Positions 33,962 through 51,530 of a stretch of 64,000 nt of DNA are shown piece after piece. How positions within the stretch are numbered: position 1 is the stretch's first letter; each line of letters opens with the position of its first letter. The position numbers and the translations under genes were made by a program. Source of the stretch: Candidatus Latescibacterota bacterium (lineage in GTDB: Bacteria > Latescibacterota > UBA2968 > UBA8231); NCBI GenBank assembly GCA_965248265.1, contig CBDFJF010000002.1, forward strand, positions 832,001 to 896,000. The letters run 5' to 3'. Below the pieces are notes generated by a model. That model was given only the letters and a program-made list of their open reading frames with translations. It made no database searches and had not been told where the DNA came from.

Positions 33962-34187
33962 GCAAAACTGGACATCAGCAAAGATGAGTGACCTGCTGGC
34001 CATCGCCCTGCTGCTTGATTCCACCATCACGGAATACGTGGAGCATTCGCCTTACACCCTTCCAGCAAATAGATCTTCTTGCGTTGGAAGAGCTGGTTGC
34101 CGAATACCAGCGGCTGAGCGGCCAGGAGACCTCTACTCCCTTGTATCAGAGTAAGGTGAGGACACATCCACTGGCGTAGCTCGAGAT

Positions 34188-34317
34188 GTTGGCAACTGCC
34201 AAGTATTGTCAGCAAATGTTGCCAACTCGGTACTGTCCGCCTTCAGAACGATATTTTCATAAATAGACAGTTATCAACAAGCTACATCAATAATTCCAAT
34301 TCAGGTATGTAACTTGC
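34188..34317 (+). promoter_or_regulatory. Sigma54 promoter 3 with upstream activator motif and IHF-like site
   Basis: AGGTATGTAACTTGC (GG at 34304); GTTGGCAAC at 34188 and ATTGTCAGC-AAAT-GTTGCCAAC at 34205-34226; TATCAACAAGCTA at 34272. Confidence 0.75.
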
Positions 34318-34397
34318 AGGTAGTCAGAGCATGATTCATTGCCCTGCCCAGAACGAAGCGAGGAGCGCTTCCAGAGTGGCAAGAAGGGGAGATACCC

Positions 34398-35360
34398 ATG
34401 GCAAACGAAAAAGACGCACGCGCATTGATCGAAGTCGTCAAGAAGGTGCCGATTTTCAACGGCCTGTCACCAACACAGATAAAGAAAATTCTTACGGGAT
34501 GCTTACCCCGAACTTTTGCCGAGAACGAAGCCGTCAGCGCGCGCGGTAAGCCGAGCGACGAGATGCTCGTGCTGTTAGCCGGTGAGTTATCGGTAAACAA
34601 GCAGGACGGATCCGTCATCGCCGTGCTGTCACCCGTAACCACGGTCGGCGAGGTGTCGCTGATCGCACGGCTGCCCCACGAGATGAATGTCGTTGCCACG
34701 AAGTCTTCCTCCGCCCTCGTGATCACGCGGACCAAGTTCGACGTGCTGATGCGCGAGGACGTTGACATGTCTCTGAGGATCTACCGCAACATCATCACGC
34801 TGATGGCATCCCGTTTCACGGGAGAGAGCGTTAACTCCTGCGACGTCGAGATGCTGCGGACCCGCAACAAATTGCTCGAAGTCAGGCAGCGCATATCCCT
34901 CGACATGATCACAGACAGTGGTGTCTCGCGTGAGGATGCTGCCCAGCAGATCGCGCAACGGCTGCGAGGAGTCATGCCGACAATTCTTGTCGTCGATGAC
35001 CAGGAGATGATCCGAACCGCTTTCAAGCGAGCATTCAGCAATTTCAACGTGATGGTTGCCTCCGACGGTGAGGAGGCGCTCAAGCTTGCCCAGGAGTGCC
35101 GTCCCGATATCGTCATCACCGACATCCACATGGACGGCATGGACGGATATCAGCTGCTCGAGCAACTCCGAGCTGACTACCCCGATATGCCGGTACTCGG
35201 GATTTCCGGTCAGGTCGAACCCGGTCACGGAGAACGCCTGGGCTTCGATGGATTCCTGGACAAACCGGTTCGTATTGCCGACATGCTGAAAGCCGTGCGA
35301 CAAAACCTGGATACCGAGGAGTCGGAAGAAGAAACTGTGACCGAACCTGAGCCGGTGTGA
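34398..35360 (+). CDS. cNMP-binding domain plus receiver domain protein, copy 2
   Basis: VPIFNGLSPTQI, PVTTVGEV; ILVVDDQ, TDIHMDGMDG, LDKP; paralog of 14066-15007. Confidence 0.88.
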   Translation: MANEKDARALIEVVKKVPIFNGLSPTQIKKILTGCLPRTFAENEAVSARGKPSDEMLVLLAGELSVNKQDGSVIAVLSPVTTVGEVSLIARLPHEMNVVATKSSSALVITRTKFDVLMREDVDMSLRIYRNIITLMASRFTGESVNSCDVEMLRTRNKLLEVRQRISLDMITDSGVSREDAAQQIAQRLRGVMPTILVVDDQEMIRTAFKRAFSNFNVMVASDGEEALKLAQECRPDIVITDIHMDGMDGYQLLEQLRADYPDMPVLGISGQVEPGHGERLGFDGFLDKPVRIADMLKAVRQNLDTEESEEETVTEPEPV

Positions 35361-36454
35361 ACATGACGAAAAAGCATCTCCTTCTCGCTTTCATGATGGC
35401 GACGGCCCCAACGACGGTCAGTTTCGCCGACGAGCGTACACGCATCTTCGTCGTCAGTAGCTACCACGCAGAGTACCTGTGGTCGCAGTCGACTCAACAA
35501 GGATTGTGCGAGGCCATGCTGCAGTTTGGCTACCTGGACAACGGCGACCAGATCGACGAGTTCACGCGGACGGATTCCGTCATGAGTTCGACAGCTGTGG
35601 TGAAGAAGGAGTGGATGGACACCAAGCGAAAGAACACGACCTCCGATATTGCCGCGGCGACCGTCCGTATCACGGCGTCGATCGATCGGTTTCGGCCGGA
35701 TGTTGTTCTTCTCGGAGACGACAACGCCGCCAACTACATCGGCAATCAGCTCCTGGACGCGGAGGTTCCGGTGGTTTTCTGGGGCATCAATGGTTTGCCG
35801 CTCAAGTACGGTCTGCTGGATCGACTGGGTCGGCCGGGTCACAACGTGACCGGTGTCTGGCAATCGGGCTATCAGAAGGAAAGCCTGGAGCTGCTCCATG
35901 AGCTCGTGCCGGAGGCGCGGACTTTTGCCATTCTGGCGTGCGATTCGGAGACCTCGAGGCCGAAAGTCAAGCAACTGCAGGTACAGGCGAGACAGGGGGT
36001 TCTGCCCCTGCAGCTTGTCGAAGTGGTCGTAACCAATTCCTATTCCGAGTTCCAGCGCCGCGCTCTTGAACTCGCCGCCCGGGTAGACGCTTTCTTCGTC
36101 CTCAATCACGACACCATGAAGGACGATCAGGGCAATCACGTCGACATGATGACGGTGGGCAAGTGGTATCTGGAACACATCGACAAGCCAGAGACTTCAC
36201 ACGAGGGCCAGTTCGTGCGTGAAGGAATGCTCTGTACGGCGAATGATTCCGGGTACAACCAGGGTTTCGAGGCTTTGACGATGGCGGCGCAGATATTGCA
36301 GGATGGTTTGGATCCCGCGACGATGAGGCCGCGGACACCTGGAAGGGGCCCCCTGATGATGAATGTTCAGCGAGCCCGGATGCTGCGGATAGGGTTCGAA
36401 GCGAAGCTCGACCAAATCGACGAACTGGCACACGAAGCCCTGGCTCTGCAATGA
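35357..36454 (+). CDS. Periplasmic ABC substrate-binding-like sensor protein
   Basis: Signal peptide; VVSSYH, MDTKR, PDVVLLGDDNA, PVVFWGIN, NVTGV. Confidence 0.75.
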   Translation: MNMTKKHLLLAFMMATAPTTVSFADERTRIFVVSSYHAEYLWSQSTQQGLCEAMLQFGYLDNGDQIDEFTRTDSVMSSTAVVKKEWMDTKRKNTTSDIAAATVRITASIDRFRPDVVLLGDDNAANYIGNQLLDAEVPVVFWGINGLPLKYGLLDRLGRPGHNVTGVWQSGYQKESLELLHELVPEARTFAILACDSETSRPKVKQLQVQARQGVLPLQLVEVVVTNSYSEFQRRALELAARVDAFFVLNHDTMKDDQGNHVDMMTVGKWYLEHIDKPETSHEGQFVREGMLCTANDSGYNQGFEALTMAAQILQDGLDPATMRPRTPGRGPLMMNVQRARMLRIGFEAKLDQIDELAHEALALQ

Positions 36455-38787
36455 AGAGTCAGTCCAAGGAGAGGCCTCTTTTCTTCCGGCTTCTACTCGC
36501 ATTCCTGGGTGTCACCCTCTCCATCAGTGCCCTGCTGGTCACCGTTTCGTATGTGTTCAGCAGCCGGTCCGTCGAGGCTCACGCGCGCGAGGCCGTGGAG
36601 ATTCAGCTGGCTGCCGCCGGACGCATGTTCGAGGCAACCTACAGTGACCACCTGGCGAAGACGCTCCAGCGTCTCATCGCCTCAACCGTACTGGACGACT
36701 ACCTGCTGGGATCCGAAGCGGTGAGATTGGTCACGGCCCGGAAACTGGAGAGACTGTTCAAGCAGTCCGCTCGCGAGCTCGAGGCCATCGAAAGCATCTA
36801 TTTCGTCGACTCGCAGGGAAGGGAACGCGTCGGTATCAGCGGCCAACGCAGGGCCGTGGATCTGGTCGATCTTGGGCGATTGTTGCAGAACTCCGGATCG
36901 CCTGCCAGCGAGTCCAACGTGCACAGTGCGGCGGCTGGCCGCGTCTGCGCCGCACTCGCATCGTTGTCGCCAGGCAGCATCTACGTCGACGGGCCGTACC
37001 TCGACGCCCTTGGGAAGGTTTCAATGTTGGTGGGGATCTCCAAGCTCGATCTAGATACGGGAGGGTTCGGCGGCAGCGTTCTCATACGCCTGATTCTCGA
37101 CCCGTTTTTTGACGACCTGGCCGAGCTGAAACTGCTCGGGGTTGCCAGTCCGATCTGGATCGTCTCAGCGACGGGGCATGTACTGCGCGCGCCAGTCAAC
37201 CAGGATGTCACGTTCCATCCCGAGCCCGCTCTGATACGCCAACTGGCATCAGAGCAGGCCGCCGACAAAGAGGTTAGCCTTATCAGTCTGAAGCAGGGGC
37301 TGATGGCGGTCCGTGAGTTGTCCGTCGTCTCCGGAACGACGCAGCTTCGATTAGTGGCCTGCCTGGCGGACGAGCTGCTGCTCAACGAAGTCGAGCCCGT
37401 GCTGCGGTTTTTCTCCATCGTTCTCTCCGTTTCCATCGTCCTGATCATCGTGGTGGCTGGGTGGATGGCACGGGTGTTGTCGTCGCCGATTCGCCGGCTT
37501 GCCGACGCAGCACTCGAGCTCGCCCAGGGTGACCTGTCAACGCGCGTCGAGGTGGAATCGGCAAGCAGTGAAGTCAGGCTTCTCGTGGACAGCTTCAACA
37601 CGATGGCAGAAGCGCGATATCGAGCGGAAGCACTGCTGCGAGTAAGCGAAGAGCGCTTTCGGTCTCTGGTGGAACAGGCCGCGGACGCGATGTTCGTCGT
37701 GGATAGAAGCAACGGCCGCTTCCTTGAGGTGAATCAACAGGCCTGCGTCAGTCTCGGATACAGCCGCGAGGAGCTTCTCGGTCTGCGTGTGCCCGAAATC
37801 CAGAGCAATCACAGTTGGGAAGAATTGGCGAAGAAATTTCAAGGATTGCTCCCAGGCGAGTCGGTCACCATCGAAGGCAACCATCGACGAAAAGACGGCG
37901 CGAAGTTTCCCGTAGAGGTCCGCGTAGGACTGTTCGAGTCAGGTGACCAGCCGTTGCTGGTTGCCCTGGCTCGGGACATTTCCGAACGACGCCGGAACGA
38001 GCAAGCGCGACAGGATGCCGAGGAAGCCCTGGAGCGCCAGCGCACATTAGGCATGCGAGCGGACCGGCTGCGGTCTCTCGGGGAGATGGCGGCCGGCATC
38101 GCCCACGAGCTCAATCAGCCGTTGGTGGGAGTGCGCGGTATAGCGGAGCACCTGCAGATCGCGCTGCAGAAAGGTTGGGATCTGAGCGACGACATGCTGT
38201 TGGAAAAAACGGGCAACATCGTCGCCCAGGCCGATCGCATGACGCACATCATCGAGCATGTGAGGATGTTCGCGCGAGAATCCGGCAAACCGGATCTTTC
38301 GCAGCTGCAGGTCAACGAAGTGGTGTCCGCCGGCATCGAGTTGCTGGGGGCGCAGCTAAGCACGCACGGGATCGAACTGGACGCCGACCTGGCCGAGGAG
38401 TTGCCCCCAGTAGCAGCTAATCCGTACTCGCTCGAGGAGGTTCTCATCAACCTGCTGACCAACGCGCGCGATGCGATCGATGAGCGACGCCAGATTCAGC
38501 CCTCGTTCTACGGCCGTATCACCGTGCGCACGCTGGCCAGGTCCAACGGCGGTGCTCACGATCTGGTCTGTATCGAGGTCGGCGACAACGGACCCGGGAT
38601 ACCGGAGGCTGTACTTCCCAAAATTTTCGATCCGTTTTTCACCACCAAAGATCCCAACAAGGGTACCGGACTTGGACTCGCCATATGTAAATCGATTATC
38701 GAACAATTCGCCGGTCACGTGTCGATCGAATCTACACACGATTCGGGCACGATGGCGACGGTGGCCCTGCCTGTCAGCATGCCGTAA
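36451..38787 (+). CDS. Membrane sensor histidine kinase (periplasmic domain-HAMP-PAS-HisKA-HATPase)
   Basis: Two TM segments, HAMP (PIRRLADAA...FNTMA), [25 protein letters not shown]. Confidence 0.93.
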
Positions 38788-38955
38788 ACGGATCCTTGCC
38801 CGAGAGCCCGGCAGAAGCTACTTTCCTCGCATTGACCCACGGCAACAACCTCTCCCTGAAATTGCTTCCCAGATCTTCCTCCCCGGGAGGATCACGACCT
38901 CCTGTCGTCCGCACCGATCCTGATTAATCGACAGCCGGGCAACCTCTGCCTGGCC

Positions 38956-40857
38956 GTGCTGCTGTGTATGGGTGCCACGGCTGCCTCCGGGCTCGCGTCG
39001 TACACCGATCCACCCGGTTATCCCAGCGCCTGGTCGTCCGCGCTGGGATCGCAAAGCTATACCTTCCAGGGCAGCTCACAGAGCGATCCCAGCGGTGCGG
39101 TGGACGCTTCCGGCGCTGATGTGCCACTTGCCCACGTTGATTTTTCCGCCGGGCCTTCTCAGGATCAGTCTTCCTTCTTCCACACGGCCACCAGTTCGGT
39201 TCTGTTTTTCCGGTTGCGTCTCGCCGGCTCGCCACTGCAGCTGGTGGCCCCTGGGCTTCCGGCAAAAGCGGCGACCTGGAACATCCTCATCGATATCGAT
39301 GGCGACGGTTACAAGGAATTCGCCGTCACCCTGGACGGTGCCGGTGGCAGCGCTGGGCCGGATGACCTAATCGTATGGTTCGGTGATACGGCATCGCAGA
39401 CGTTTTCTACCGGCCAGGAGGTGTGGCGCCAGGACAGTGCCGGTACCGACGATGATGCCGATGGGGCTGAGGGTGGCATACCGCTCTGGGACATCGATGC
39501 TGATCCCTACGTGTGGGATTTTCGCCGCGTCCGAGTCGTCCAGATCGACATGTCCTTGCCCCCGGGAGATGAGGCTTCTGAGTATTTCCTGGATGTACAG
39601 ATCCCGCTAACGGCCTTCGATGCGTCGACCGCAGGCGGAACCGCGCTGTCGTCGTCGACGGCAATCTCCATGACGGCGACCACCGGCTCGAGCTTCACGA
39701 ACCCGCTGCAGCACGATCTGTTGTTCGCGGGTGAGTTTGCCTTGGCCGATGTGCCGTTGCCGATGGGGGACCCGACCGCAGGCAGTAGCGTTTTTCAGGA
39801 GCCAATCGTGACAGCGGTGACGGCCACGGCGTGTCCGGCGCCGCTGTTTCTGAGTGCTACCGTTTTCGACGCGATCGGACCGGGGGGCGGGAGCGTTGCA
39901 ACCACCGTGGCGGCAGTGCAGTTCGAGTCCTACGCGGACTTGAATGCGGATGGGCAGGCGAAGGACGCGGACGGGGAATGGACTCTGATCGGCGGCGCTC
40001 AACAGGGCTCGGGTGGTTTGAGCCAGTGGGGAGGGAGCTGGAACGTCGACCTGTTGCCGAACGGCAATTATCTCGTGCGAGCGTTGGCCACTGATGCGCA
40101 GGGCAACGAGATGGTTTCAACCGAGCAACCGGCGCAATTGCAACAGGTGTCCGTGGTTGCCGGGGTGACCAACGAATGCAGCATCATCCTTTCGTTCGCC
40201 GGTTCAACCCAGTCGGTCATCGACCTCAACGGTGACCCGGTGGCGCCCGGAGACACCCTCGTCTACAACATCACGCTCAAGAACAGTGGTATCGAGGTGC
40301 CCAACGCGACGGTCCGCGATACGCTCGATGTCCAACTGGAGTACGTCGCAGGTTCAGCGGTCCCTGAACCGGCGCAATCCGGTGCGCAGCTGCTGTGGAA
40401 CGTGGGCACGGCCGCTGCCGGCGCTGAGCAAGCGTTTACCTTCGCTGCCCGAGTTCGCGAATCGACCGTCAACCAGACCACGATCGAGAGTCGTGGTTGG
40501 ATCACGACGGGAACGATAGCGGAGTTGGTGACGGCAATTGTGAGCGTGGTTTCCCTGCCGCGGATACAGTTATCGACGACCGTCGACGGCGACACCGGGC
40601 TTCCGGGAGATACCCTGGCCTACCGGGTCATGTACGCGAATGTCGGTACCGACGCGGCGACGGCCGTGCTGATTTCGGATGAGGCGCCGCCGACGGTTTC
40701 GTACGTCAGCAACAGCGTCACCGTAAACGGATTACCCAAAACCGACGCGTCTGATGGCGACAACGTCGAGGTCGCCGAGGACCTCATCTCCGTCGAGATC
40801 GATACCGTGGCCGTCGGGGAAACGGGAGAAATACGTTTCCTGGTTCGCATTGAATAG
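38956..40857 (+). CDS. Secreted DUF11-domain protein A (putative tip adhesin)
   Basis: Signal-like N-terminus (true start may lie slightly upstream), beta-rich N-domain, Ig-like domain (PNGNYLVRALATD), two DUF11 repeats (PGDTL.Y...N.G), the last one truncated. Confidence 0.8.
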   Translation: MLLCMGATAASGLASYTDPPGYPSAWSSALGSQSYTFQGSSQSDPSGAVDASGADVPLAHVDFSAGPSQDQSSFFHTATSSVLFFRLRLAGSPLQLVAPGLPAKAATWNILIDIDGDGYKEFAVTLDGAGGSAGPDDLIVWFGDTASQTFSTGQEVWRQDSAGTDDDADGAEGGIPLWDIDADPYVWDFRRVRVVQIDMSLPPGDEASEYFLDVQIPLTAFDASTAGGTALSSSTAISMTATTGSSFTNPLQHDLLFAGEFALADVPLPMGDPTAGSSVFQEPIVTAVTATACPAPLFLSATVFDAIGPGGGSVATTVAAVQFESYADLNADGQAKDADGEWTLIGGAQQGSGGLSQWGGSWNVDLLPNGNYLVRALATDAQGNEMVSTEQPAQLQQVSVVAGVTNECSIILSFAGSTQSVIDLNGDPVAPGDTLVYNITLKNSGIEVPNATVRDTLDVQLEYVAGSAVPEPAQSGAQLLWNVGTAAAGAEQAFTFAARVRESTVNQTTIESRGWITTGTIAELVTAIVSVVSLPRIQLSTTVDGDTGLPGDTLAYRVMYANVGTDAATAVLISDEAPPTVSYVSNSVTVNGLPKTDASDGDNVEVAEDLISVEIDTVAVGETGEIRFLVRIE

Positions 40858-40883
40858 TTGCATGAGTAAGTGACAGGAGGAGG

Positions 40884-41441
40884 TTGGAGATCAACATGAT
40901 ACGCATCAGGAGGACCTTGGTAACCGCTTGTATGATCGCATCGAGTGCTCAGGCTCAGGCGCCCGTTGACGAAGCGGCCGTGCCCACCGGGCCGCGGATC
41001 GAGATCGTCATCATGGACGATCTGTTGCTGCCATCGGGCGGAACCGGGACCGTGACCAGAGACGGCGCCGGCAATCTCGTAACTCGCCCCGGAGATGTCA
41101 TTCGCTATCGACTGACCGCTTCGAATCGCGGTAGTGAACCGGCACGCAATACCGAACTCCTCGACCCCATTCCCGCCGGGACGGAGTACGTCATCGGCAG
41201 CGCACGTGGGGACGGTATGCGACTGCTCTTCAGTATCGATGGGGGGCGAACATTCAAACCGCAGCCCGTGCGCTATGAAGTCCGGTCGGCGCAGGGGGAG
41301 GTAGTTGAGGTCGCGGCAGAGCCAACGATGTACACCCACGTGAAATGGTCGGATCTGGCTCCGATCTCCCCCGGTGATGCAGTCGAGGCGAGCTTCCAGG
41401 TGCGCGTTTCGCAGCGACAAGATGCTGAGCAGGCGAAATGA
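40884..41441 (+). CDS. Small secreted single-DUF11-like protein B
   Basis: AGGAGG RBS, signal peptide ending AQA, PGDVIRYRLTASNRG...DPIPAGTEYVIGSA, FSIDGG.TF, YTHVKW. Confidence 0.8.
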   Translation: MEINMIRIRRTLVTACMIASSAQAQAPVDEAAVPTGPRIEIVIMDDLLLPSGGTGTVTRDGAGNLVTRPGDVIRYRLTASNRGSEPARNTELLDPIPAGTEYVIGSARGDGMRLLFSIDGGRTFKPQPVRYEVRSAQGEVVEVAAEPTMYTHVKWSDLAPISPGDAVEASFQVRVSQRQDAEQAK

Positions 41442-43231
41442 TGATGACGGACATGATGATGAAAGGATGGACTCAGATGTCGACCCGACGATTGAACTGC
41501 CCCTCCCCTTTCACTCTAGGGGCGATGGGCGGTTTCGTGCTGGCGTGCACTCTCCTGTGCGGCGTTGTCCCTGCGGCAGCGGCCGGGACCCCGGCGGGCA
41601 CCATCATCCGCAATATCGCCATCGCAAACTACGAGGATACCAGTGGCAATCCGCTGCCTCCGGTGGAGTCGAACGAGGTGACGACGATCGTGGCGCAGGT
41701 TGCCGGCGTCGACGTTTCACCCGAAACCTCATTGCACAATGTCATCGCCGGGTCTGCTACCGTGTTCCTGGTGCAGGTTACCAACGTGGGCAATGGCGCG
41801 GACTCATTCCCGTTGACCTTGAGCGGCATCCCGGGTGGTTGGGGGGCGACCATCTACAATGACGTGAACGGCGATGGTGTTCTGGACGCGAGCGAAGAAA
41901 CCACCGAGAACGAGGTCGTGACGCTTTCATTGAACGCCGACGAAATGGCGTCCATCCTGATGAAAGTCGACGCGCCCATCGCGGCCGAGAGTGGTGAGGC
42001 CGTGACGATGACGCTGTCTGCAACATCTGACTTCGACGTCAGCATACAGGATACCGGGACCTACACGGCGAACGTAACGGCGGCGGCAGTCTCTGCATTT
42101 AAGTCAGCCACGCCAAACAATCCGAAGACCGGCGACGTCGTGACTTATACGATCACAGGAGTGAACGAGGGCACGAGTACGGCATTTGCCGTCGCCTATT
42201 CAGATCCATTGCCGACTGGCGTCACCTATGTTCCGGGTTCGATGCGTTTCGGACTCGAGGGGATTACCTATGACAGCGCCACGCCATTGAGCGACGGCGT
42301 CGACGCCGACATCGGTGATTTCAGTGGTTCCGCCGCGAACACGGTGACCTTTCTATGGGGTGATTCGCCTGGACAGCAGGTCGCCGTCCTGTTCTTCCGG
42401 GTCACCGTCATCGCGGAGCTATCCGCCGGCACCGTCGTCAGCAACACCGCCATCGTCAACTACGAAAGCCCACAGGGGATCCAGGCACCGGCCGTCGACA
42501 GCACGCCTGGTCTGTTCACAGTCGCGCCCACACCACTGCCGATCCTGTCGATCACCTCTACAGCCGGTGCCGCTGAAGCAGGTTCGTCGTTGCCTTATCC
42601 CGCCTCCGTGTCCAACGGCGGCAACGCTACTGACATATTCGATATAACGTCGTCTTCGACGGCCGGTCTGTTGTTACAGGTCTGGGTGGACGTCAACGGT
42701 GACGGTATCGCCGGAACAGCCGGTGATTTCGAGCTTACCGACACCGATGCCGACGGAGATCCGGACCTGGGCAGCATCGTCCCCGGCGCCACGGTGGAGT
42801 TGGTGTTCGTCGTAGAAGTCCCCGCTGGCGTCAGCGATGGCACCATCGACGTAACGACCATCATGGTGACGTCGTCGAATGATCCTGCCGTATCGGCTAC
42901 CGGGACGCTGACGACGACCGTCAGGGCGCCAATCGTCGCCGTGAGCAAGTCAGTCGATCCAGCGGGTACTCAGCCACCGGGTCAGGTACTGACCTATACC
43001 GCCATCGTCGCCAACGGCGGTCAGGGCAGTGCCACCAATGTGCTGTTCAGTGACGCGATTCCAACCAGCACGACCTATGTGCCCAACAGCACACTCGTCG
43101 ACGGCGTGCCCAAAACGGACATCGAGGACGGCGACAACGTCGAGTTTTCCAACCGCACCATCATCGTCGATCTGGGTACAATCGGGCCAGAGGGCAGCCA
43201 CACGATCCGCTTCAGCGTGACCATAGACTAG
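41438..43231 (+). CDS. Secreted DUF11 protein C (putative major pilin/shaft)
   Basis: Signal peptide, GTPAGTIIRNIAIANY N-terminal segment, two tandem Ig+DUF11 units, DxNGDG Ca-binding-like loops. Confidence 0.85.
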   Translation: MMMTDMMMKGWTQMSTRRLNCPSPFTLGAMGGFVLACTLLCGVVPAAAAGTPAGTIIRNIAIANYEDTSGNPLPPVESNEVTTIVAQVAGVDVSPETSLHNVIAGSATVFLVQVTNVGNGADSFPLTLSGIPGGWGATIYNDVNGDGVLDASEETTENEVVTLSLNADEMASILMKVDAPIAAESGEAVTMTLSATSDFDVSIQDTGTYTANVTAAAVSAFKSATPNNPKTGDVVTYTITGVNEGTSTAFAVAYSDPLPTGVTYVPGSMRFGLEGITYDSATPLSDGVDADIGDFSGSAANTVTFLWGDSPGQQVAVLFFRVTVIAELSAGTVVSNTAIVNYESPQGIQAPAVDSTPGLFTVAPTPLPILSITSTAGAAEAGSSLPYPASVSNGGNATDIFDITSSSTAGLLLQVWVDVNGDGIAGTAGDFELTDTDADGDPDLGSIVPGATVELVFVVEVPAGVSDGTIDVTTIMVTSSNDPAVSATGTLTTTVRAPIVAVSKSVDPAGTQPPGQVLTYTAIVANGGQGSATNVLFSDAIPTSTTYVPNSTLVDGVPKTDIEDGDNVEFSNRTIIVDLGTIGPEGSHTIRFSVTID

Positions 43232-43287
43232 CGCCGCGACGGCGAGGAGAGAGCATGTTCGTCGCGCAAGGAGTGGGTTGATTGACG

Positions 43288-46200
43288 ATGCGGTTGAGCG
43301 CGCTAGCACTCAGCATCGTCGTCCTGGGATTGCTGGTCAGTGCAGGGGGAGCGCGGACGCCGGTCGGCACCGTCATCTCCAATCAGGCCACTGTTTCCTT
43401 TACTGACCACGGCGGACAGTCGCTCGTCAGCCACAGCGACATCGCCCGCCTGACCGTGGCCGCCGGCGTCCGCCTCGCCGTCACCGTCGACGCCCTTCCC
43501 AATCCCGTGGCGCCTGGCGACAGCCTCACGGTCGACGTCATCATAGAAAATCCAGGCAACACCGCGGCACAGGAAGTCCTCCTGACCATGGTGACGGACG
43601 TTGTCGGCTCGGTGGCCGCATTCGCCGACAGTGCTGCCATTGTTGAAGGACGGCAGATTTCCTGGCCGGCGGTGGAGATCACACCGGGTTCTCGCGTGCT
43701 GCGGCGATTTCGCGTCCACATCGATTCAACGGCTCAACACGGATCGGACTTCGGACTTGAGGCGACGGTGATCGCGGCCAATGTCGACGAACCACTGCTG
43801 CTCACCAGGCGGGTCAATATCGACTTCGCGCCCCGCCTCGTCCTCACGAAAGACGCTGATCGGGACAGCGTCACTGCCGGGGGGGTGGTTGAGTACTCCG
43901 TCCATTGCGTCAACACGGGCAATGCGACGGCGCGCGGAGTGAGGGTGCGCGATGATGTGGCGAGTGCGCTGACTCCATCATCCTCCTCACGGCCGTTCAC
44001 GAAAGCGGGATCGGTGCTGACCTGGGACGTCGGTGACCTGGAGGCCGGCGCGGTCGTTTCTTTCCAACTGCTCGTTCGCGTCAGTGACGGGGTAGTCACC
44101 GGCAGCAGCCTGCTCAACCAGGTAAGCGCGACGGCGATGGCCACCGGGCCGGATGGTGCCCCGCGATCGTTCGTCTCAGAGTCCCCCACCGTCACCGTGA
44201 CGGTGATCGATCCCGCCTTGAGTCTGGCCAAGATGGTTCAGTCAGAGTTGCCAGTTCCGGGGCGGGGTGATGTGATTGCGTATCGGCTGGAGTTGACGAA
44301 TGCCGCCGCCATTGCCGCCGGCTCCGTGGTGTTACGCGATACCCTGCCTGAACCCTTGCGGTTTGTATCGGCTGAGGCGGAGGTGCCAGTGTCGGTGAGG
44401 GAGCAGATCGTCGAGGCGACGTGGCCCGAGGTCGTTGCCGGCTCAACAGTCTTCCTGAGCATCCTGGCTCGGGTGGACTCCGTGGATACGCTGCCAGAGC
44501 TCATCACGAATCGGGCCTGGGCAGAGTCTTCCATTTCGGTGATTCCATCCAACGCCGTTGAGACGACGCTGCGCCTGGACGAGCCGACGGACGGCGAGTT
44601 GGAGCAACCCAGCAGAATCTTTGCCGGCGCGGACCTGACAATTGAGGTGCGCGACGCCGATGCCAACCACCATCCGACGGTAATCGACACCGTCACGGTC
44701 GGTGTCACCAATCAACGCAGCGGTGAGGTGGAGACACTGCTGCTACCGGAAACGGGCGTCGACACCGGTGTGTTCACGGGTGCAGTTGGAACCGCGCACA
44801 GCCAGGAACGGGGGGAGGATAACGATGGCCATCTGTTCGCTGTGCCAGCCGATCAGCTGGTCAGTACCTATTCAGACCTGCTAACGGCAACGGGCGAACC
44901 CGCGCAACGGTTGGCTCAGACCGAGGTGGCTTTGACATCGATCGCCTTGCGCGTTTATCCAGATGCCATCGTCGCCAACGGGACCGAGCGTGCCATTTTC
45001 ACAGCTACGCTGACCGATGACGAAGGCCTGCCGCTACCCGATGGCACGCCAGTGGTATGGCGGACGGATGCGGGAGTCTTCACGGAGGTGTCTGTCGACG
45101 ACGACGGACAGGCGATGACGAAGACGGTCGGGGGTGGTGGCGAAGCCAGGGTGGCGTTGACGGGGCCGCAGCTGACCCGGCGTGACACACTCATCGTCAT
45201 TGCCTCTCTAGCAGGTTTTGATTCGAATCCACTCGCACTGCAACTGCTGCCCGGCGCCATTGGTGTTCGTGTCTTCGACGATGAGCGCGGCATCGAGGTG
45301 ACGGCGGCCGATCCGGACCTGGAGGTGACGGTACGGGTTTCGGGAAGCACTTCAGCGGGGGCATCACTGTCGGAGGATATCGATCTGGACGACAATGGGG
45401 TCTTCGTCGTCGATCAGCTCCCACCGGGTGACTACTCTCTGGACGTCACGGTCGAAGACGCTGCCACGGGCAGGTTGGTTTTCGCCGGCTTGCTGCAACA
45501 GATCAGCGTCAACGACGACGGCACGGCCACCCCTCCAAAGAACAGCGTCAGCGGCAGCCTCCGTGGCCGTTCCGAATCCTCCGGAGGGCGCTATGCCGGT
45601 AGCATCGTCGAATTGCTGGACAGAGCCACAGGGGCCGTCGTCGACGAGGGTGTCGCGGATACCGATGGTGGCTATCAGTTCCACAACCTGAATCCGGGTG
45701 CCTACGATCTGCGTGTTGTCTTCGATGACGGGACCGTGGTCACGCGTCCAGTGCCCGAGCCGAGTGAGGTCATCGGAACGGCGCTCGTCAACACCGATAT
45801 CCTCATCGATCCGTTCGGTATCGTCTTCGACGCCAGCAGCGGGGAGGCTGTCCCCGGGGTGGAAGTCAGTCTGCGGATGGCCGATGACACGGTTGTGCCG
45901 CTTCCGGGTCTCAACGGAACGGGGGCCGTACCCAACGATGACAACGTCAACCCGTTTACGACAGGAGTTGACGGACGCTACGCCTTCCTGTTCGGCGGTA
46001 ACCAGGTAGGCGCCTTCGGCCGGCCACAGATGTACACCATGGCAGTCAATCCCGATGAGGGGTCTTCATTCTTGCCAAGACGGCTGCTGCTGAGTGTACA
46101 GCCGAGTCGAGCCGGACCGGTCGAATCGACGCCGATCACGATGCGGGTGAGTGCTGCCGATGGCTTGCCGTTGGCAGTTCCAAACTCCTTCGCCCTGACC

Positions 46201-48453
46201 ACGGATGATGTCGTACTCGCCGACATCGAAACCATCGCCCTGCACCTGCCGCTGTTCGCCCGCGCTGCAGTACTCGAATTCGCCAAGATCGCCCTCAGCG
46301 ACACCGTGGCACCCGGAGAATCAGTCGATTTCGGACTTGCCATCGCCAATACCGGCAATGACACCGCTCGCGCCGTACTACTGACCGACTCGCTGGGCGT
46401 CGGCTGGGAGATCGAATGGACAGACCGCGGGACCCTGGCGGCGACGGACGTCGTGCGCTGGGAACTGGGTGATATCGCACCGGGAAGGCGCGATACCCTC
46501 GGGCTGCGCGCCCGCGTCATCGCACCTCAGGCACACGGGACGGTCCTGACCAACCGTGCTCATCTGAGCGTCACGGAGGGCTTCCCGTTGCGTGCTGAGA
46601 CCGCGGTCGTCGTGCACAGTACACCCCTTTGGATACTCTCCAAACAGGCCCTGGCCGACAGTGTTACCTCCAGCCAGGACGTGGAGTACCTGCTTGAGTA
46701 CAGAAACGACGGCACGGGTGTGGCCCGCGGTGGTAGCCTCGTCGACACGCTCGCAGCCGGACTCAGTGTGGTGGCCGCAGAGGGAGCCCAGATAGACGGC
46801 AATGTCGTGCGTTGGTCGCTTGAAGATGTAGCCGTGGGCGCCACCGGCAGCCGGCGGTTGGTGGCGCGAGTCGACGCTGACTTGGTCCCGGGTAGCCTGG
46901 TTTCCAACAGAGCAGTCGTGCTCGCCCCTGATGGATCTGTCGCCGCCGCCGATTCGGCCAGCGTTATCACGCGCGCGCCGCGGATGAATCTGGTCAAGCG
47001 CGCCCTGGTCGATACTGTCACCCAGGGGGACCGGGCAACCTTCACGATCACCGTCACCAACGAGGGTGAAACGCCGGTCACTTCCGTGACGCTGGTGGAT
47101 TCACTGCCTCTTGAGTTGAGCATCGTCGACGCAGCCGATGCCGTCGTCCCGGATGCAGTCGCCGTCGAGCCGGGAGCCGTTACCTGGCAGCTTGACTCTC
47201 TGGCCGCGGGGGCAGCCGACACTTTCAGGGTAACGGTTGAAACGGAAGAAGCGGCGCTAGTCACGAACCAAGCGCGGCTGTTGATCGCATCGCAAACGAT
47301 CGCCACGGCGACGGCCACGATTGCCGTGCGTGAGCGTCCTCCGCTCGAAGTCGGTCTGGTCGCAGACGCCCCCACGCTGGAGGCGGGGGCAGTCATCACG
47401 TACACGGCACACCTGCGGGCGCCGTCATCGATCGCGGGTCAGGTCGTCGTCACCGACAGTCTGCCCGCAGCCCTCGTGTATCAAACCAGTCTGGATGGCC
47501 CGCAGCCTGAGTACGATTCCGACAGCAACGTGCTGACGTGGACGATCGCTGACCTGGGCCCAGAGGGTCCGCTGACGCTGATCTTCACGGCCGCGGTCTC
47601 GGAAGGTCTACCGCCCGGAGAATCGGTGGTGCAAAACCGGGTGGTCGCACAGCTGGGCGCTCAGCAGTTCGTTTCGGAGCGCGTCGAGACGCTGGTTACC
47701 GTGCCGTTTTTGAGGATCGAGAAGTCAGCTGATGTGACCGTCGTCGAGGTCGGTGACTTCGTCGAGTACCGCATTCAGTTACAGAACACGAGCGCGGGAA
47801 CGGACACGCTGCGCAACATCCTCATAAACGATTGGACACCGCCCGGTTTCCGCTATGCGGAAAGCACGGCCGTACTAGACGGAGTACCGCAGCAGCCGAG
47901 TCAACCCGGCTCAGGATTACTCCTGTGGTCCGTGCCGCCACTGGCGGGCAACGACGTTTCAGAGCTGATCTACCGACTGGTAGTCGGGCTCGATGCACCA
48001 TTTGGCGATGGCGACAACACGGTACGGGTCACGGCGCAGACGGCTCGCGGGGCCGATCAGGACGCTGGTCCCGTGTCGGCTCGGGTACGGGTACGCCCGG
48101 ATCTGTTCTCGCGCGGAGAGCTCATTCTGGGACGCGCCTGGATCGACGCCGATGGGGACGGTCTTTTCGACTACGACGAGGAGGTGGTCCCCGGCATCGC
48201 CCTGCTCATGGAAGATGGCACGCGCATCATCGCTGACCGCCACGGCAAGTTTTCGGTCCCCGAAGTCAGACCTGGAGATCACGTGCTGCGTGTACTCAAG
48301 CACAATCTCACCGGTCTGGAACCGACAGCCCTCGGCAGCAGGTCCGCCGGAGATCCCTGGTCGCGCTTCGTGACCGTACCGGTAGCCGGGTCTGCGAAGG
48401 CGAATTTCCCGTTCCGCCGACCAGATGAGAGTCAAACGGTGCAGGAGCCATGA
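43288..48453 (+). CDS. Large multi-DUF11 / Ig / SdrD-B-like surface protein D (putative base or stalk)
   Basis: Signal peptide, TPVGTVISNQATVSF, about 8 DUF11 repeats, invasin-like and prealbumin-like folds, C-terminal GRAWIDADGDG...PGI.L.MEDG. Confidence 0.85.
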   Translation: MRLSALALSIVVLGLLVSAGGARTPVGTVISNQATVSFTDHGGQSLVSHSDIARLTVAAGVRLAVTVDALPNPVAPGDSLTVDVIIENPGNTAAQEVLLTMVTDVVGSVAAFADSAAIVEGRQISWPAVEITPGSRVLRRFRVHIDSTAQHGSDFGLEATVIAANVDEPLLLTRRVNIDFAPRLVLTKDADRDSVTAGGVVEYSVHCVNTGNATARGVRVRDDVASALTPSSSSRPFTKAGSVLTWDVGDLEAGAVVSFQLLVRVSDGVVTGSSLLNQVSATAMATGPDGAPRSFVSESPTVTVTVIDPALSLAKMVQSELPVPGRGDVIAYRLELTNAAAIAAGSVVLRDTLPEPLRFVSAEAEVPVSVREQIVEATWPEVVAGSTVFLSILARVDSVDTLPELITNRAWAESSISVIPSNAVETTLRLDEPTDGELEQPSRIFAGADLTIEVRDADANHHPTVIDTVTVGVTNQRSGEVETLLLPETGVDTGVFTGAVGTAHSQERGEDNDGHLFAVPADQLVSTYSDLLTATGEPAQRLAQTEVALTSIALRVYPDAIVANGTERAIFTATLTDDEGLPLPDGTPVVWRTDAGVFTEVSVDDDGQAMTKTVGGGGEARVALTGPQLTRRDTLIVIASLAGFDSNPLALQLLPGAIGVRVFDDERGIEVTAADPDLEVTVRVSGSTSAGASLSEDIDLDDNGVFVVDQLPPGDYSLDVTVEDAATGRLVFAGLLQQISVNDDGTATPPKNSVSGSLRGRSESSGGRYAGSIVELLDRATGAVVDEGVADTDGGYQFHNLNPGAYDLRVVFDDGTVVTRPVPEPSEVIGTALVNTDILIDPFGIVFDASSGEAVPGVEVSLRMADDTVVPLPGLNGTGAVPNDDNVNPFTTGVDGRYAFLFGGNQVGAFGRPQMYTMAVNPDEGSSFLPRRLLLSVQPSRAGPVESTPITMRVSAADGLPLAVPNSFALTTDDVVLADIETIALHLPLFARAAVLEFAKIALSDTVAPGESVDFGLAIANTGNDTARAVLLTDSLGVGWEIEWTDRGTLAATDVVRWELGDIAPGRRDTLGLRARVIAPQAHGTVLTNRAHLSVTEGFPLRAETAVVVHSTPLWILSKQALADSVTSSQDVEYLLEYRNDGTGVARGGSLVDTLAAGLSVVAAEGAQIDGNVVRWSLEDVAVGATGSRRLVARVDADLVPGSLVSNRAVVLAPDGSVAAADSASVITRAPRMNLVKRALVDTVTQGDRATFTITVTNEGETPVTSVTLVDSLPLELSIVDAADAVVPDAVAVEPGAVTWQLDSLAAGAADTFRVTVETEEAALVTNQARLLIASQTIATATATIAVRERPPLEVGLVADAPTLEAGAVITYTAHLRAPSSIAGQVVVTDSLPAALVYQTSLDGPQPEYDSDSNVLTWTIADLGPEGPLTLIFTAAVSEGLPPGESVVQNRVVAQLGAQQFVSERVETLVTVPFLRIEKSADVTVVEVGDFVEYRIQLQNTSAGTDTLRNILINDWTPPGFRYAESTAVLDGVPQQPSQPGSGLLLWSVPPLAGNDVSELIYRLVVGLDAPFGDGDNTVRVTAQTARGADQDAGPVSARVRVRPDLFSRGELILGRAWIDADGDGLFDYDEEVVPGIALLMEDGTRIIADRHGKFSVPEVRPGDHVLRVLKHNLTGLEPTALGSRSAGDPWSRFVTVPVAGSAKANFPFRRPDESQTVQEP

Positions 48454-51400
48454 GGTTTATCGTCCTTGTCGGCTGCTGCATCGTCCTCGTTGTGGCCGAT
48501 GCCCTGGACGCCGTCGAAATCCAAACGCCGGCTGACAGCAGCGTCACCTACAGGGACCGGATAGCCGTTATCGCACTCGGATTGCCTGGAGTTCCCGCGA
48601 CGCTGGATGTCAATGGCGATCCCGTCGAGACCCTGGTCGTGCGCGCCGACGCGCGAGTTGACTTTCTGAATGTGGCTCTGCCCTCGGGGCCTGTCCTGTT
48701 GAGTGTGCGACAACGTATGCCGAACGGTGAGCGCAAGGCAGACAGTACTCGCATTCATGTTGTCGGCACGGCCAGTGAAGTCCTGATCGAGTTGGAGCAC
48801 ACGACGCTACCTGCTGACAGTTTGTCCCGGAGCCGCGTCGATGTCAGGGTTGTGGACGATTGGGGTATGACGCTCCCGGATGGTCAGCTCATCAATGTGA
48901 GTCTGGATCGCGGCCAAGTGCTGGCGGAAGATCTCTATGCGGCCGAACCCGGTGTACAGGTGCAGGTGCGGGATGGCCGGGCCTCGTTTGACATCATTTC
49001 GGCTGCTTCCGTGGGGGAGGGCCTGCTGCGGCTCAGCGCGGACGGGGCGCAATCAGTCCAATGGATCGGCTACACGCAACCCGTTGAGGATTGGACCGTG
49101 GTTGGGCTGGCTACTGCTCAGCTGGGTTGGCGCTCGGACAAACCGGCACCGCAAGGGATCGCGCCGCCGGCTGCCTTCAAGGGTGGCGCCTACGCCGACG
49201 GAAAAACGGCGGTGTATGCACGGGGCACGGTGGCTGACGACTACCTGCTTGTGACTTCCTACGATTTTGAACGCGACTACGACGATCGCGTCTTCCGCTT
49301 TCTCACCCCGGAACGGGTGTATCCCATCTATGGCGATGCCAGTTCCATCTTTTACGAAGCGCCATCGGCGAGTCCGTTCTACGCCAAACTATCGCGGGGA
49401 CGGGATCATCTGATGTACGGCGACTTTGCAACGCGGATGGGCGCAGACTCGGAAGTGGCTGCATACAACCGCTCCTTAACCGGAGTGTCGACGCGATTGG
49501 AAACCGAACGGGGGATGAAGGTGAAGGTCTTCGGGGCGTCCACGGATCAGTCCATACAGGTAGACGAGGTGCGGGGGGAAGGAGTCTCGGGGTACTACTA
49601 CCTGTCAGCCGCCGGCCGCGGCGTACCGATCGTCGAAGGCAGTGAACGCGTCGTCATTCAGGTGCGCGATCGCCTCCATCCCGAACTCGTCCTCAAGGAG
49701 GATGTCCGATATCGTTTTACTGACTACGAAATCGACTACGAGGCGGGCACGCTATTGTTCAAGCGACCGGTGCCCAGTGTCAGTCCCGAAGAGCACCCCG
49801 TCTTCATCGTGACGACGTACGAGGCCACCCGCTCGATCGAACAGCGCTGGACCGGAGGCGGCCATGTCGAGGTACCGATTCGGGAGCGCTGGCAACTCGG
49901 TGCCACGGCCGTGGGTGAAGAGGGGGAGGCGCGAGAGAACTATTGGCTCACAGCCGTCGACGGTCGCTTTGTGCCCACGGATGACGTCAGTGCACGGCTG
50001 GAGGTGGCGCGCTCGATGGCGGAGGCGGACGGCTGGGCATGGAAGGCGGCTGTGCGTGGTCGACTGACGGGGGAGCACCTGAGTTACGATCTTCAGGTAC
50101 GGGATGCGGGTCGCAACTTCGACAATCCCAGCAGCCCAACGGTACGGGCAGGAGTGCGCAAGGTGCGGGGTCGCGCGGTGTGGTCGCCCGCAAGTGGCAC
50201 CGAAGTGACGGCAGAATCACATAGCCTCAGCGACCGTGTCAATGATGAGGAGCGTTCCAGTGTCGCCCTGGCCACGCGCTGGTGCTGGCGGGCCCTGGAC
50301 AATCGGCTAGGCGTCGATCGTACTCGCAGCGACAGACGGAGTCAGTCCTTTCACAGTCGTACGGTCAGCGCCGCGACTTCGTGGGCGGCGTTGCCGCGGT
50401 GGACTCTCGGGGCGCAACGCGATCAGACCTTCGGTGATCAGGACCTCAGCTACCGGCCCACGCTCACGACCCTGCGCAGTCGATGGAAGCTCAACGAGCG
50501 CAGCGACCTGATCGTCGAACACGCCTTTCGTGATGGCAGTCCAATCGATTCCAGCTTCACGGCGGCGGCGCTGCAATCGAAGGTCGGCGACGATGCGACC
50601 GCCTACGCCAACTACCAGATCGACGGCGGCATTGCCGGCAGGCAGAACCAAGCTATCGTTGGTCTGCGCCATTCTTACCATCCGCGATCTCACCTGAGTG
50701 TGCACACGGCATTCGAGCGCACGTGGACGCTGCGTCAGAACGACGCCTCCAACTTCTACGCCTACAGCCTGGCAGCCGAATTTCTGCCGCCGAGAGATTT
50801 CAAGACGAGTGCTCGCTTCGAACAGCGCCGCGGCAGATCGCTGGACAAGACCGTTATCTCCGGGGCACTCGACCTGGCTGTGGGTGGAGACCTGTTCGTG
50901 TTGACGAAACAGGTCTATACGGATGAGGAGCGGGCACAGAGCAGCGGACCCAGCGGAGCGAAGGCGGGGATTCGAGCGTACCGAATCGCGAACGGGCTCG
51001 CCTATCGTCCCAGTCGTCACGATCACCTGAATGGGCTGGCTCGCTACGAACGGCGCTACGAACGCAACACCCTGGTCACGCCCGCGCATCGACGTTGGAC
51101 CGACATCGGCTCATTCGAGTTCATCTTCGAACCGAAGTCGCAGATCGAATGGTTCGCCCGCTATGCCTTCAAGATTGCTGACTTGACGACACGCGGGTTG
51201 TCAACGGAGACGCTGACGGATCTGTGGATGACGAACCTGCGCCTGGAGTGGGGGGCAAAGGCGCGCTGGGATGTGCTGGGGGAATACCGTCTGCTCACGC
51301 AGCATTACGCCGGAGAGCGCATCCACGGGGCGTCAGCGGAATGCGGCTGGATCTTCACCGGCAACGCTCGGGTGGCCGGCGGCTACAACTTTGCCGGTTT

Positions 51401-51530
51401 TCACGACGGTGATCTGGCCGGGCTTTCGTATTGGGCTCGCGGACCCTATCTCAAGATCCAGAGCAAGTTCTCGGAGGCCGCTGTTGCTCCATGGCTGGAG
51501 GGCATGCAGAGCGCGTGGGACAGCTGGTAG
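48450..51530 (+). CDS. Large outer-membrane beta-barrel protein E with N-terminal Ig-like domains
   Basis: Signal peptide, LPADSLS...VVDDWG Ig domain, YPIYGDAS, YNRSLTG, DYEIDYEAGTLLF, long alternating beta pattern ending GGYNFAGF...GPYLKIQSKF; ATGA overlap with D. Confidence 0.78.
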   Translation: MRFIVLVGCCIVLVVADALDAVEIQTPADSSVTYRDRIAVIALGLPGVPATLDVNGDPVETLVVRADARVDFLNVALPSGPVLLSVRQRMPNGERKADSTRIHVVGTASEVLIELEHTTLPADSLSRSRVDVRVVDDWGMTLPDGQLINVSLDRGQVLAEDLYAAEPGVQVQVRDGRASFDIISAASVGEGLLRLSADGAQSVQWIGYTQPVEDWTVVGLATAQLGWRSDKPAPQGIAPPAAFKGGAYADGKTAVYARGTVADDYLLVTSYDFERDYDDRVFRFLTPERVYPIYGDASSIFYEAPSASPFYAKLSRGRDHLMYGDFATRMGADSEVAAYNRSLTGVSTRLETERGMKVKVFGASTDQSIQVDEVRGEGVSGYYYLSAAGRGVPIVEGSERVVIQVRDRLHPELVLKEDVRYRFTDYEIDYEAGTLLFKRPVPSVSPEEHPVFIVTTYEATRSIEQRWTGGGHVEVPIRERWQLGATAVGEEGEARENYWLTAVDGRFVPTDDVSARLEVARSMAEADGWAWKAAVRGRLTGEHLSYDLQVRDAGRNFDNPSSPTVRAGVRKVRGRAVWSPASGTEVTAESHSLSDRVNDEERSSVALATRWCWRALDNRLGVDRTRSDRRSQSFHSRTVSAATSWAALPRWTLGAQRDQTFGDQDLSYRPTLTTLRSRWKLNERSDLIVEHAFRDGSPIDSSFTAAALQSKVGDDATAYANYQIDGGIAGRQNQAIVGLRHSYHPRSHLSVHTAFERTWTLRQNDASNFYAYSLAAEFLPPRDFKTSARFEQRRGRSLDKTVISGALDLAVGGDLFVLTKQVYTDEERAQSSGPSGAKAGIRAYRIANGLAYRPSRHDHLNGLARYERRYERNTLVTPAHRRWTDIGSFEFIFEPKSQIEWFARYAFKIADLTTRGLSTETLTDLWMTNLRLEWGAKARWDVLGEYRLLTQHYAGERIHGASAECGWIFTGNARVAGGYNFAGFHDGDLAGLSYWARGPYLKIQSKFSEAAVAPWLEGMQSAWDSW

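Follow-up and report, generated by a model that had tools for sequence, protein, structure and literature searches.

What would five adjacent genes build at the surface of a diderm bacterium when three of their products end, and two begin, in the middle of a domain? The question is raised by a locus in a genome of Candidatus Latescibacterota (assembly GCA_965248265.1), within a stretch of 64,000 nucleotides of contig CBDFJF010000002.1 (positions 832,001 to 896,000) that we call the window and to which coordinates refer unless another locus is named. Five open reading frames (ORFs), A to E, run in one direction from 38956 to 51530 on the forward strand, with 4-base overlaps between B and C and between D and E. 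A first-pass annotation had taken them for a five-gene DUF11 operon, with which the co-directional frames and the Pfam matches to DUF11 in A to D agree. We find that the last DUF11 domains of A, B and C stop just where the segments at the mature N-termini of C and D take up the same domain, and we consider it likely that the split domain is completed in trans, in a fibre or in a short stalk. The five genes are:

Gene A, 38956..40857 (+): 633 amino acids (aa); secreted; an N-terminal part without a recognised family, one complete DUF11 and a truncated C-terminal acceptor DUF11; proposed distal tip subunit.
Gene B, 40884..41441 (+): 185 aa as listed; signal peptide and a single truncated acceptor DUF11; proposed small cap or initiator subunit.
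Gene C, 41438..43231 (+): 597 aa; signal peptide, donor strands, a CARDB-like domain, a complete DUF11, a second immunoglobulin (Ig)-like domain that has an insert rich in Asp and Gly, and lastly a truncated acceptor DUF11; proposed repeating or adaptor subunit.
Gene D, 43282..48453 (+): 1723 aa; signal peptide followed by a donor segment, DUF11 domains in eight complete copies and Big_1-like, CarboxypepD_reg-like and SdrD_B-like domains, without an acceptor; proposed stalk, base and terminator.
Gene E, 48450..51530 (+): 1026 aa; signal peptide, a pair of Ig-like domains (23-210) and then a predicted beta-barrel of very large size (216-1007) with an insert of small strands at 310-440; proposed outer-membrane anchor and possible conduit.

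The Pfam DUF11 model (PF01345, cut-off 24.6 bits) gives 55 bits in A, 24.9 in B, which is barely over the cut-off, 53.5 in C and 249.9 in D. C and D additionally match the isopeptide-domain families DUF7507, DUF7927, DUF7619 and SdrD_B in Pfam. With NCBIfam, TIGR01451 is recovered in A to D and the isopeptide-forming fimbrial domain TIGR04226 in D; E has no family by either collection. The cluster occurs as a single copy in the genome, which comprises 7.3 Mb in two contigs at 92% completeness, the scope of all the whole-genome family searches below.

A DUF11 domain cut at one position

A profile of the complete DUF11 domain, 148 positions long, was built by jackhmmer iteration on the ORFs of the window and of related loci, seeded with C residues 215-362; the Lys, Asp and Asn of the seed define triad columns 8, 42 and 122. 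On this scale the last domain of A covers positions 2-110 (residues 535-632, the protein ending at 633), that of C positions 1-110 (497-596, ending at 597) and that of B positions 14-114 (66-179, followed by a tail of 6 residues and the end of the chain). The N-terminal donor segments cover the remainder: C residues 48-85 match positions 111-148 and D residues 24-56 match positions 112-145. Acceptors stopping at 110-114 and donors beginning at 111 or 112 make an exact complement. Complete copies are found in C (215-362) and, eight times, in D. The mature N-termini of C and D had been read at first pass as the missing segment, with A and B carrying an acceptor only, C both pieces and D a donor only, and the profile ranges agree with this reading throughout. 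A donor profile made from C relatives only also recovers the N-terminus of D (27.1 bits, E 2.7e-07 in the ORF set searched). A PDB sequence search with the C profile returned 9IFR only (E 0.0025), apart from a chance match to a designed repeat. The pieces of the split domain lie as follows:

A acceptor domain, 40558..40854 (+): A residues 535-633; profile 2-110; Thr at the first-strand Lys position, Asp kept.
C donor segment, 41582..41707 (+): C residues 49-90; profile 111-148; the last DUF11 strands, with the Asn59 codon at 41612-41614.
C acceptor domain, 42926..43228 (+): C residues 497-597; profile 1-110; Lys504 codon at 42947-42949 and Asp539 codon at 43052-43054; interface with the D donor in the complex model.
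D donor segment, 43351..43458 (+): D residues 24-59; profile 112-145; Asn34 codon at 43381-43383.

Conservation of the divided isopeptide triad

DUF11, under the name CLIPPER, is an established autocatalytic isopeptide domain of fibrillar adhesins, whose triad in the solved structure 9IFR consists of Lys715, Asp748 and Asn806, according to the part of the publication available (PMC12617251). The same arrangement, with Lys in the first strand, Asp, and Asn in a late strand, is present within one chain in the middle domain of C and in six domains of D, that is in seven of the nine complete domains. These include the examples picked out at first pass (FKSA, LTKDA, LAKM and IEKSA). Within the chain, the triad is incomplete in the last domains of A, B and C, all of which stop before the Asn strand. 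The available text describes the CLIPPER bonds as intramolecular (PMC12617251), whereas the terminal copies here are cut after profile position 110, with the Asn-bearing strands found at a different protein's N-terminus or at the opposite end of the same chain, and the bond would join chains.

The conservation of the divided triad was assessed in an alignment of 48 sequences made up of C and 47 of its 60 best relatives (P0097-P0156); four fragments, nine near-duplicates or close variants and a separate group of about 900 aa were left out. The donor Asn59 is kept in 45 of the 48, the acceptor Lys504 in 46 and Asp539 in 47. All three residues are lost together in one relative, P0115, which has His, Arg and Gly in their place; elsewhere Ser replaces the donor Asn in P0138 and P0154, and Gln replaces Lys in P0120. 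In every one of the 48 proteins the donor motif directly follows the signal peptide and the chain ends two or three residues past the F strand. The separate group (P0157-P0216, about 884-919 aa, PF24346/DUF7507, from Krumholzibacteria, Latescibacteria and others) resembles C in parts only.

Proteins that carry a single piece of the domain keep their share of the triad as well. Among A-like acceptors the Lys is present in 13 of the 16 in which the alignment reaches the first strand, along with Asp or Glu, the exceptions being A of the window, L052 and L044_8907; many proteobacterial acceptors fall outside this count, their Lys column being empty by the automatic rule although a Lys is seen by eye. 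B-like proteins have the first-strand Lys in 18 of 26 cases, with Leu in B of the window and its four closest Latescibacterota relatives. N-terminal donors of D proteins and of fused D-E proteins keep the Asn in 17 of 18; those of L030, L038, L040, L041 and L042, which include both kinds, were missed by the automatic rule and identified by eye or alignment. A Lys retained without an Asn in its own chain, and the reverse, are only sensible if the partner comes in trans.

A modelled joint between C and D

Multimer modelling of C with D had been proposed at first pass as a check on the joint. The complex was modelled from the full mature C (49-597), its own donor included, and D 24-185, in three runs with three controls. 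C with D scored 0.71 in each of the three runs, against 0.01 for the best control, a mark reached by 58 of 80 solved complexes and by 2 of 110 mismatched pairs; contacts agreed between runs to at least 99%, and the predicted local distance difference test (pLDDT) of the partner was at least 86. The interface consists of C 497-545 and 579-597 packed against D 25-62, where C 535-539 and D 40-36 form an antiparallel strand pair. These models support the placement of the D donor in the groove of C despite a cis competitor in the same chain.

Recurrence of the layout across phyla

An alignment of E was compared with 168 genomes of the phylum, of which 23 matched at E <= 1e-10, about 13 of them near full length, and 12 regions were fetched. 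A 13-row alignment of C, taken with one genome per species, gave 25 loci, labelled Latescibacterota, Verrucomicrobia, Neomarinimicrobiota, Desulfobacteraceae, Lentisphaeria, Deltaproteobacteria, Myxococcales, Proteobacteria (Allosphingosinicella, Woeseiaceae) and Deinococcus, with one metagenome-assembled genome labelled Clostridia. Across 28 distinct loci the genes usually follow one another as A-like, B-like, C-like, D-like and E-like, so that the conservation of the neighbourhood, a further check suggested at first pass, extends over many phyla. A B-like gene is present in 25 of the 28, and a single ORF with both donor and acceptor in 24. The E-like part is found in 22; the remaining six loci end at a contig edge. 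Of the 22 loci with an E-like part, 11 have D and E in one reading frame.

The distribution of the two pieces is strict: in the tabulated loci a terminal acceptor is absent from every D-type protein, and a donor from every A- or B-type protein. Sizes are variable by comparison. Relatives of A range from 278 to 2386 aa and keep only the C-terminal acceptor domain in common, and the number of domains between donor and acceptor differs among proteins of 331-370, 559-644 and 906-1006 aa. Several loci depart from the simple layout. L054 (5183-12520) has two B-C pairs, and L063 (9884-12513) and L061 (9902-12594) have two short C-like genes, of 339-368 aa, on either side of B; by analogy these duplications resemble major and minor subunits. 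A distant version of the cluster occurs in a cultured isolate, Deinococcus sp. Arct2-2 (L065, NZ_SSNW01000054.1), and comprises a B-like gene, proteins with a donor (751 and 936 aa), one of 1608 aa that includes an E-like part and one of 962 aa that has an acceptor only.

The predicted outer-membrane barrel of E

An AlphaFold2 (AF2) model of E, built from 28 sequences (mean pLDDT 80.3, predicted template modelling score, pTM, 0.62), contains a signal helix, the Ig-like pair at 23-210 and then long antiparallel strands up to residue 1007: 32 long strands lie within 450-1007, three more before residue 272, and short strands at 310-440. The best Foldseek matches in the PDB are the outer-membrane barrels SprA, LptD, SlpA, TonB-dependent receptors and MtrB, with invasin/intimin for the Ig-like part. 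As the first-pass annotation had guessed, the model supports E as a large outer-membrane barrel, with membership in any known barrel family unsupported. The top match is the type IX translocon SprA (8gl6_A, E 8.8e-09) at template modelling (TM) scores of 0.10-0.20, and the modelled resemblance goes no further than that of one large barrel to another. With about 32-36 strands, E would rank among the largest barrels formed by one chain; usher barrels have 24 strands, and autotransporter barrels 12, with the passenger threaded through. No autotransporter family was found in D or E with Pfam, although the D-E fusions do have the order passenger, then barrel. With 32 long strands in 450-1007 alone and no autotransporter family, E does not classify as a type Va or type Ve autotransporter.

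The E family comprises 91 relatives, none with a functional name. Some of them (P0015, P0022, P0044, P0094-P0096; 677-1781 aa) carry an OmpA peptidoglycan-binding domain (PF00691), in some cases together with DUF11, and the cell wall may be an attachment point for part of the system in these lineages.

Search for known pilus machineries

Matches to the usher (PF00577), to the PapD-like chaperone (PapD_N, PF00345) and to sortase (PF04203) are absent from the genome; an Escherichia coli control genome matched the usher model, and control genomes matched PapD_N. In this respect the first-pass statement that sortase and PapC/PapD genes are missing applies to the genome as a whole. None of A to E has a C-terminal LPXTG motif. 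The only related motif is an internal LPETG at D residue 488 (44743-44757), in a region conserved as YETG in relatives; given a genome without a sortase match, we take it as chance. Type V pili are made from lipoprotein precursors that a protease processes before strand exchange. The cleavage regions of A, C and D have no lipobox, the weak lipobox matches of B and E fall within the hydrophobic core without being conserved in relatives, and no match to the FimA or Mfa families was obtained with Pfam. Judged by their sequences, these proteins do not appear to be precursors of the type V (Bacteroidota) kind.

The proposed fibre

These observations can be assembled into a scheme in which all five proteins would be exported by Sec signal peptides and E would sit in the outer membrane as a very large beta-barrel. 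D would form a long stalk of complete, internally crosslinked DUF11 domains attached to E, being one chain with it in many relatives. The first 35 or so mature residues of D, which correspond to the last DUF11 strands including the Asn strand, would insert into the C-terminal domain of C. Since C bears a donor at its own N-terminus, it could be extended by another C; its donor would complete the last domain of a further C, of A, with its large and variable head, or of the minimal B. At acceptors that possess both Lys and Asp, as C does with K504 and D539, the Asn of the incoming strand (N59 of C or N34 of D) would form an autocatalytic Lys-Asn isopeptide, turning the joint covalent in the manner of a natural SpyTag/SpyCatcher pair. 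The subunit logic corresponds to that of chaperone-usher pili, in which the tip has a groove only, the shaft strand and groove, and the terminator a strand only; from this correspondence we infer assembly from the tip, with D added last as terminator and anchor. Polymerisation, the covalent bond, the surface location and export through E are likewise inferred parts of the scheme.

The roles of the two acceptor-only proteins are assigned with differing confidence. A may be an adhesin, a label unsupported by any match in a protein atlas search with its N-terminal 400 residues, in which scores reached at most 0.85 and the hits shared no common family. For B, the first-pass annotation had offered chaperone or cap. 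Retention of the Lys in 18 of 26 relatives is more easily reconciled with a small, covalently joined cap than with a chaperone that is recycled, and a strand-capping chaperone is given less weight on that account.

An outer-membrane-anchored fibre joined by completion in trans of a split DUF11/CLIPPER domain has, in our estimate, about an even chance of being correct. The fuller version is doubtful at present, and we put it forward tentatively: a new class of pilus, widespread in diderms, in which a split autocatalytic isopeptide domain makes polymerisation and crosslinking a single step without sortase, usher or strand-donating chaperone, the irreversible Lys-Asn bond drives assembly outside the cytoplasm, the fibre is extruded through, and in the end anchored to, the barrel of about 32-36 strands, and D or D-E acts as terminator.

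Weighing the alternatives

Several results weigh against such a fibre. The acceptors of A, B and C had been described at first pass as alike in their truncation before the Asn strand, with a first-strand Lys noted for the complete repeats. The truncation stands for all three, with ends at profile 110-114, but the Lys position is Thr in the last domain of A and Leu in that of B, and in the window only the acceptor of C has both Lys (K504) and Asp (D539). The A-C or B-C joints of this genome cannot therefore be Lys-Asn crosslinked, and only joints into C could be covalent; the crosslinks proposed at first pass for C find backing in the conserved split triad of the C family. Three of the 48 C-family proteins are without the donor Asn, and in one fused D-E relative (L035/L041) it is Ser. 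The C + D models were computed from our own alignments, their output lists no K504-N34 pair and no side-chain geometry, and they rebuild a fold for which the single-chain structure 9IFR has been solved, so that they may reflect fold memory; a score of this kind speaks for binding without proving it. The TM-scores of E against its Foldseek PDB matches are only about 0.1-0.25, and the OmpA domain in some E relatives means that part of such arrays may be periplasmic. The fibre itself, its location and the crossing of the outer membrane by A, B and C are all postulated. The first-pass annotation had also regarded a closed monomer, its N-terminal segment paired within the chain, as an outcome that would refute the pilus, and the AF2 monomer of C, built from 48 sequences (mean pLDDT 85.3, pTM 0.55), has the look of a self-complemented protein: residues 50-90 form strands with a pLDDT of about 88-92, and the modelled chain probably docks its own donor in cis.

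This last result is the starting point for a reading we consider quite unlikely, in which the N-terminal strands of C complete its own C-terminal domain, nested as in tip pilins of the RrgA/GBS104 type, with an N59-K504 bond within the chain; only the orphans would then pair, the D donor with A or B, or they would stay incomplete. The low-confidence linker at 212-217 of the monomer model could let the chain fold back, and cis completion would account for the conservation and joint loss of the C-family triad just as trans completion would. There is also a published precedent for a discontinuous isopeptide domain, GBS104-like_Ig, which, in the portion of the source available, is formed by residues 137-211 and 587-717 with Lys188, Asp597 and Asn692 and is closed within one chain (PMC12617251). 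Yet the D donor was placed in the groove of C with C's own donor present, and the acceptor-only and donor-only proteins keep their Lys or Asn, so that trans completion is needed in the system anyway. A ring of fixed geometry is hard to square with so variable a count of domains between the two pieces, and a bond in cis would irreversibly trap a protein that has termini matching those of its neighbours. The arguments for trans completion apply equally to a short covalent display stalk, which we regard as unlikely: D, anchored by E, would capture a single acceptor protein, with C as a single-use adaptor (D-C-A or D-C-B), the specificity of donor and groove would bar C-C contacts, and the same chemistry would operate without a long fibre. 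The joint modelled is that of C with D, the operon has one gene of each type, and D by itself would be a stalk of at least 12 domains. Against this, the donors of C and D resemble each other closely in sequence, and so do the acceptors of C and A; a C-C joint is accordingly not obviously excluded; the two B-C pairs of L054 and the two short C-like genes of L063 are what is seen in pilus operons with major and minor subunits.

It is further conceivable, though very improbable, that the truncated C-terminal domain serves chiefly for sorting or recognition through E, in a role like that of the C-terminal domain of type IX cargo, with the N-terminal strands of C and D as remnants or folded on a neighbouring domain and no joint between subunits. 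That A, B and C, otherwise unrelated in size, end in the same truncated domain would suit such a signal, as would SprA being the best fold match of E, albeit with a TM-score of only 0.18-0.20 in this comparison. Acceptors and donors, however, are cut at the same profile position, the Lys, Asp and Asn are conserved and in P0115 jointly lost, which a mere signal would not require, and the complex model supports strand insertion.

Comparison with known surface fibres

The split of the domain, a DUF11 donor-strand fibre and this cluster were looked for in the literature, as recommended at first pass, and no description was found in the literature searched; among the nearest published items is the 'grappling hook' of Chloroflexota, a giant single-chain DUF11 protein. 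Chaperone-usher pili (type 1 and P; PMC11821415) share with the proposed fibre the logic of tip, shaft and terminator subunits, a dedicated outer-membrane barrel and a single operon. They differ in that the subunit fold here is DUF11 rather than the pilin Ig fold, the donor has about 35-40 residues with two or more strands instead of a short extension, a chaperone that donates a strand is not apparent, a covalent joint is probable and the barrel is far larger. Tat-fimbriae (tafi), TasA and other chaperone-free donor-strand fibres likewise have an N-terminal donor strand; their monomers are modelled closed and their oligomers open, and an order of tip, adaptor, shaft and anchor has been put forward on the basis of structure predictions (PMC11821415). 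Their folds are different, they are anchored in the cytoplasmic membrane or the matrix, and an isopeptide is unmentioned in the tafi paper (PMC11821415).

Among covalent systems, sortase-dependent pili of Gram-positive bacteria are fibres of Ig-like pilins with internal isopeptides, and D matches TIGR04226; the present host, by contrast, is a diderm with an outer-membrane barrel, no sortase match in its genome and no C-terminal LPXTG. The thread of the archaeon Sulfolobus acidocaldarius (Saci_0406), as far as the available part of its description goes, also combines donor-strand complementation with proposed intermolecular isopeptides in a system without sortase, Asp24, the N-terminal residue, being bound through its alpha-amino group to Asn57 two subunits away (PMC9715654). 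The thread is described there without a Lys-Asp-Asn triad, a Pfam domain or an outer membrane, whereas the operon divides a recognised autocatalytic domain between adjacent subunits; the mature N-termini of its donor proteins begin with Ala-Gly-Thr-Pro or Arg-Thr-Pro, and not with Asp. A chemical parallel to the proposal is SpyTag/SpyCatcher, in which, as set out in the accessible text, an isopeptide domain is cut into a strand-bearing tag and a truncated catcher that bond spontaneously (PMC6539128). That pair is man-made, has the CnaB2/CnaB fold and forms a Lys-Asp bond; the operon would be a natural counterpart with a CnaA-like DUF11 fold, a Lys-Asn bond and a head-to-tail arrangement.

Gene starts and flanking genes

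Some of the gene models probably need adjustment. In the region 38788-39000, none of the codons ATG, GTG and TTG occurs in the span from the upstream in-frame stop to 38956, and the listed GTG start of A yields a hydrophobic leader of 14 residues only. In-frame codons just upstream of 38956 would supply the charged n-region of a normal signal peptide, and relatives of A have full signal peptides ahead of the same mature N-terminus. This points to a true start at a rare codon (ATT, ATC or CTG around 38917-38923) or to a sequence error. The start of B is likely the ATG at 40896. The ORF of C opens with a Met-rich extension (41438-41480) without counterpart in relatives, and the nearly invariant Met in their alignment is residue 14; the real start is hence probably near 41477, and the 4-base overlap of B and C may not be real.

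Directly upstream on the same strand (31988-38787) lie genes for a hybrid response-regulator/PAS/histidine kinase, a response regulator binding cyclic nucleotide monophosphates, an ABC-type substrate-binding-like protein and a HAMP-PAS histidine kinase; these four signalling-type genes are possible regulators of the cluster. Downstream there is a convergent AIR-synthase-related gene. Scans for promoters and terminators performed no better on the sequence than on shuffled versions of it (4 compared with 2.6 and 13 compared with 8.1, respectively).

Implications for diderm surface structures

If the proposal is correct, the cluster would provide a new route to surface fibres in bacteria with two membranes, covalent and yet without sortase. 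Chaperone-usher subunit logic would have been reached from unrelated parts, and SpyTag/SpyCatcher chemistry would exist as a natural head-to-tail polymer. Its novelty would lie in a donor-strand fibre made of such parts with a built-in covalent lock, and it would constitute a new pilus class should both the covalent polymer and the export role of E hold. The bonds of CLIPPER/DUF11 would be extended from intramolecular to intermolecular ones, the large uncharacterised outer-membrane barrel family of E would gain a function, and the split domains would be a source of orthogonal natural tag/catcher pairs for biotechnology. The cluster is present in many uncultured lineages, such as Latescibacterota, Neomarinimicrobiota and Lentisphaeria, and its distant version in the cultured Deinococcus isolate makes the system testable.

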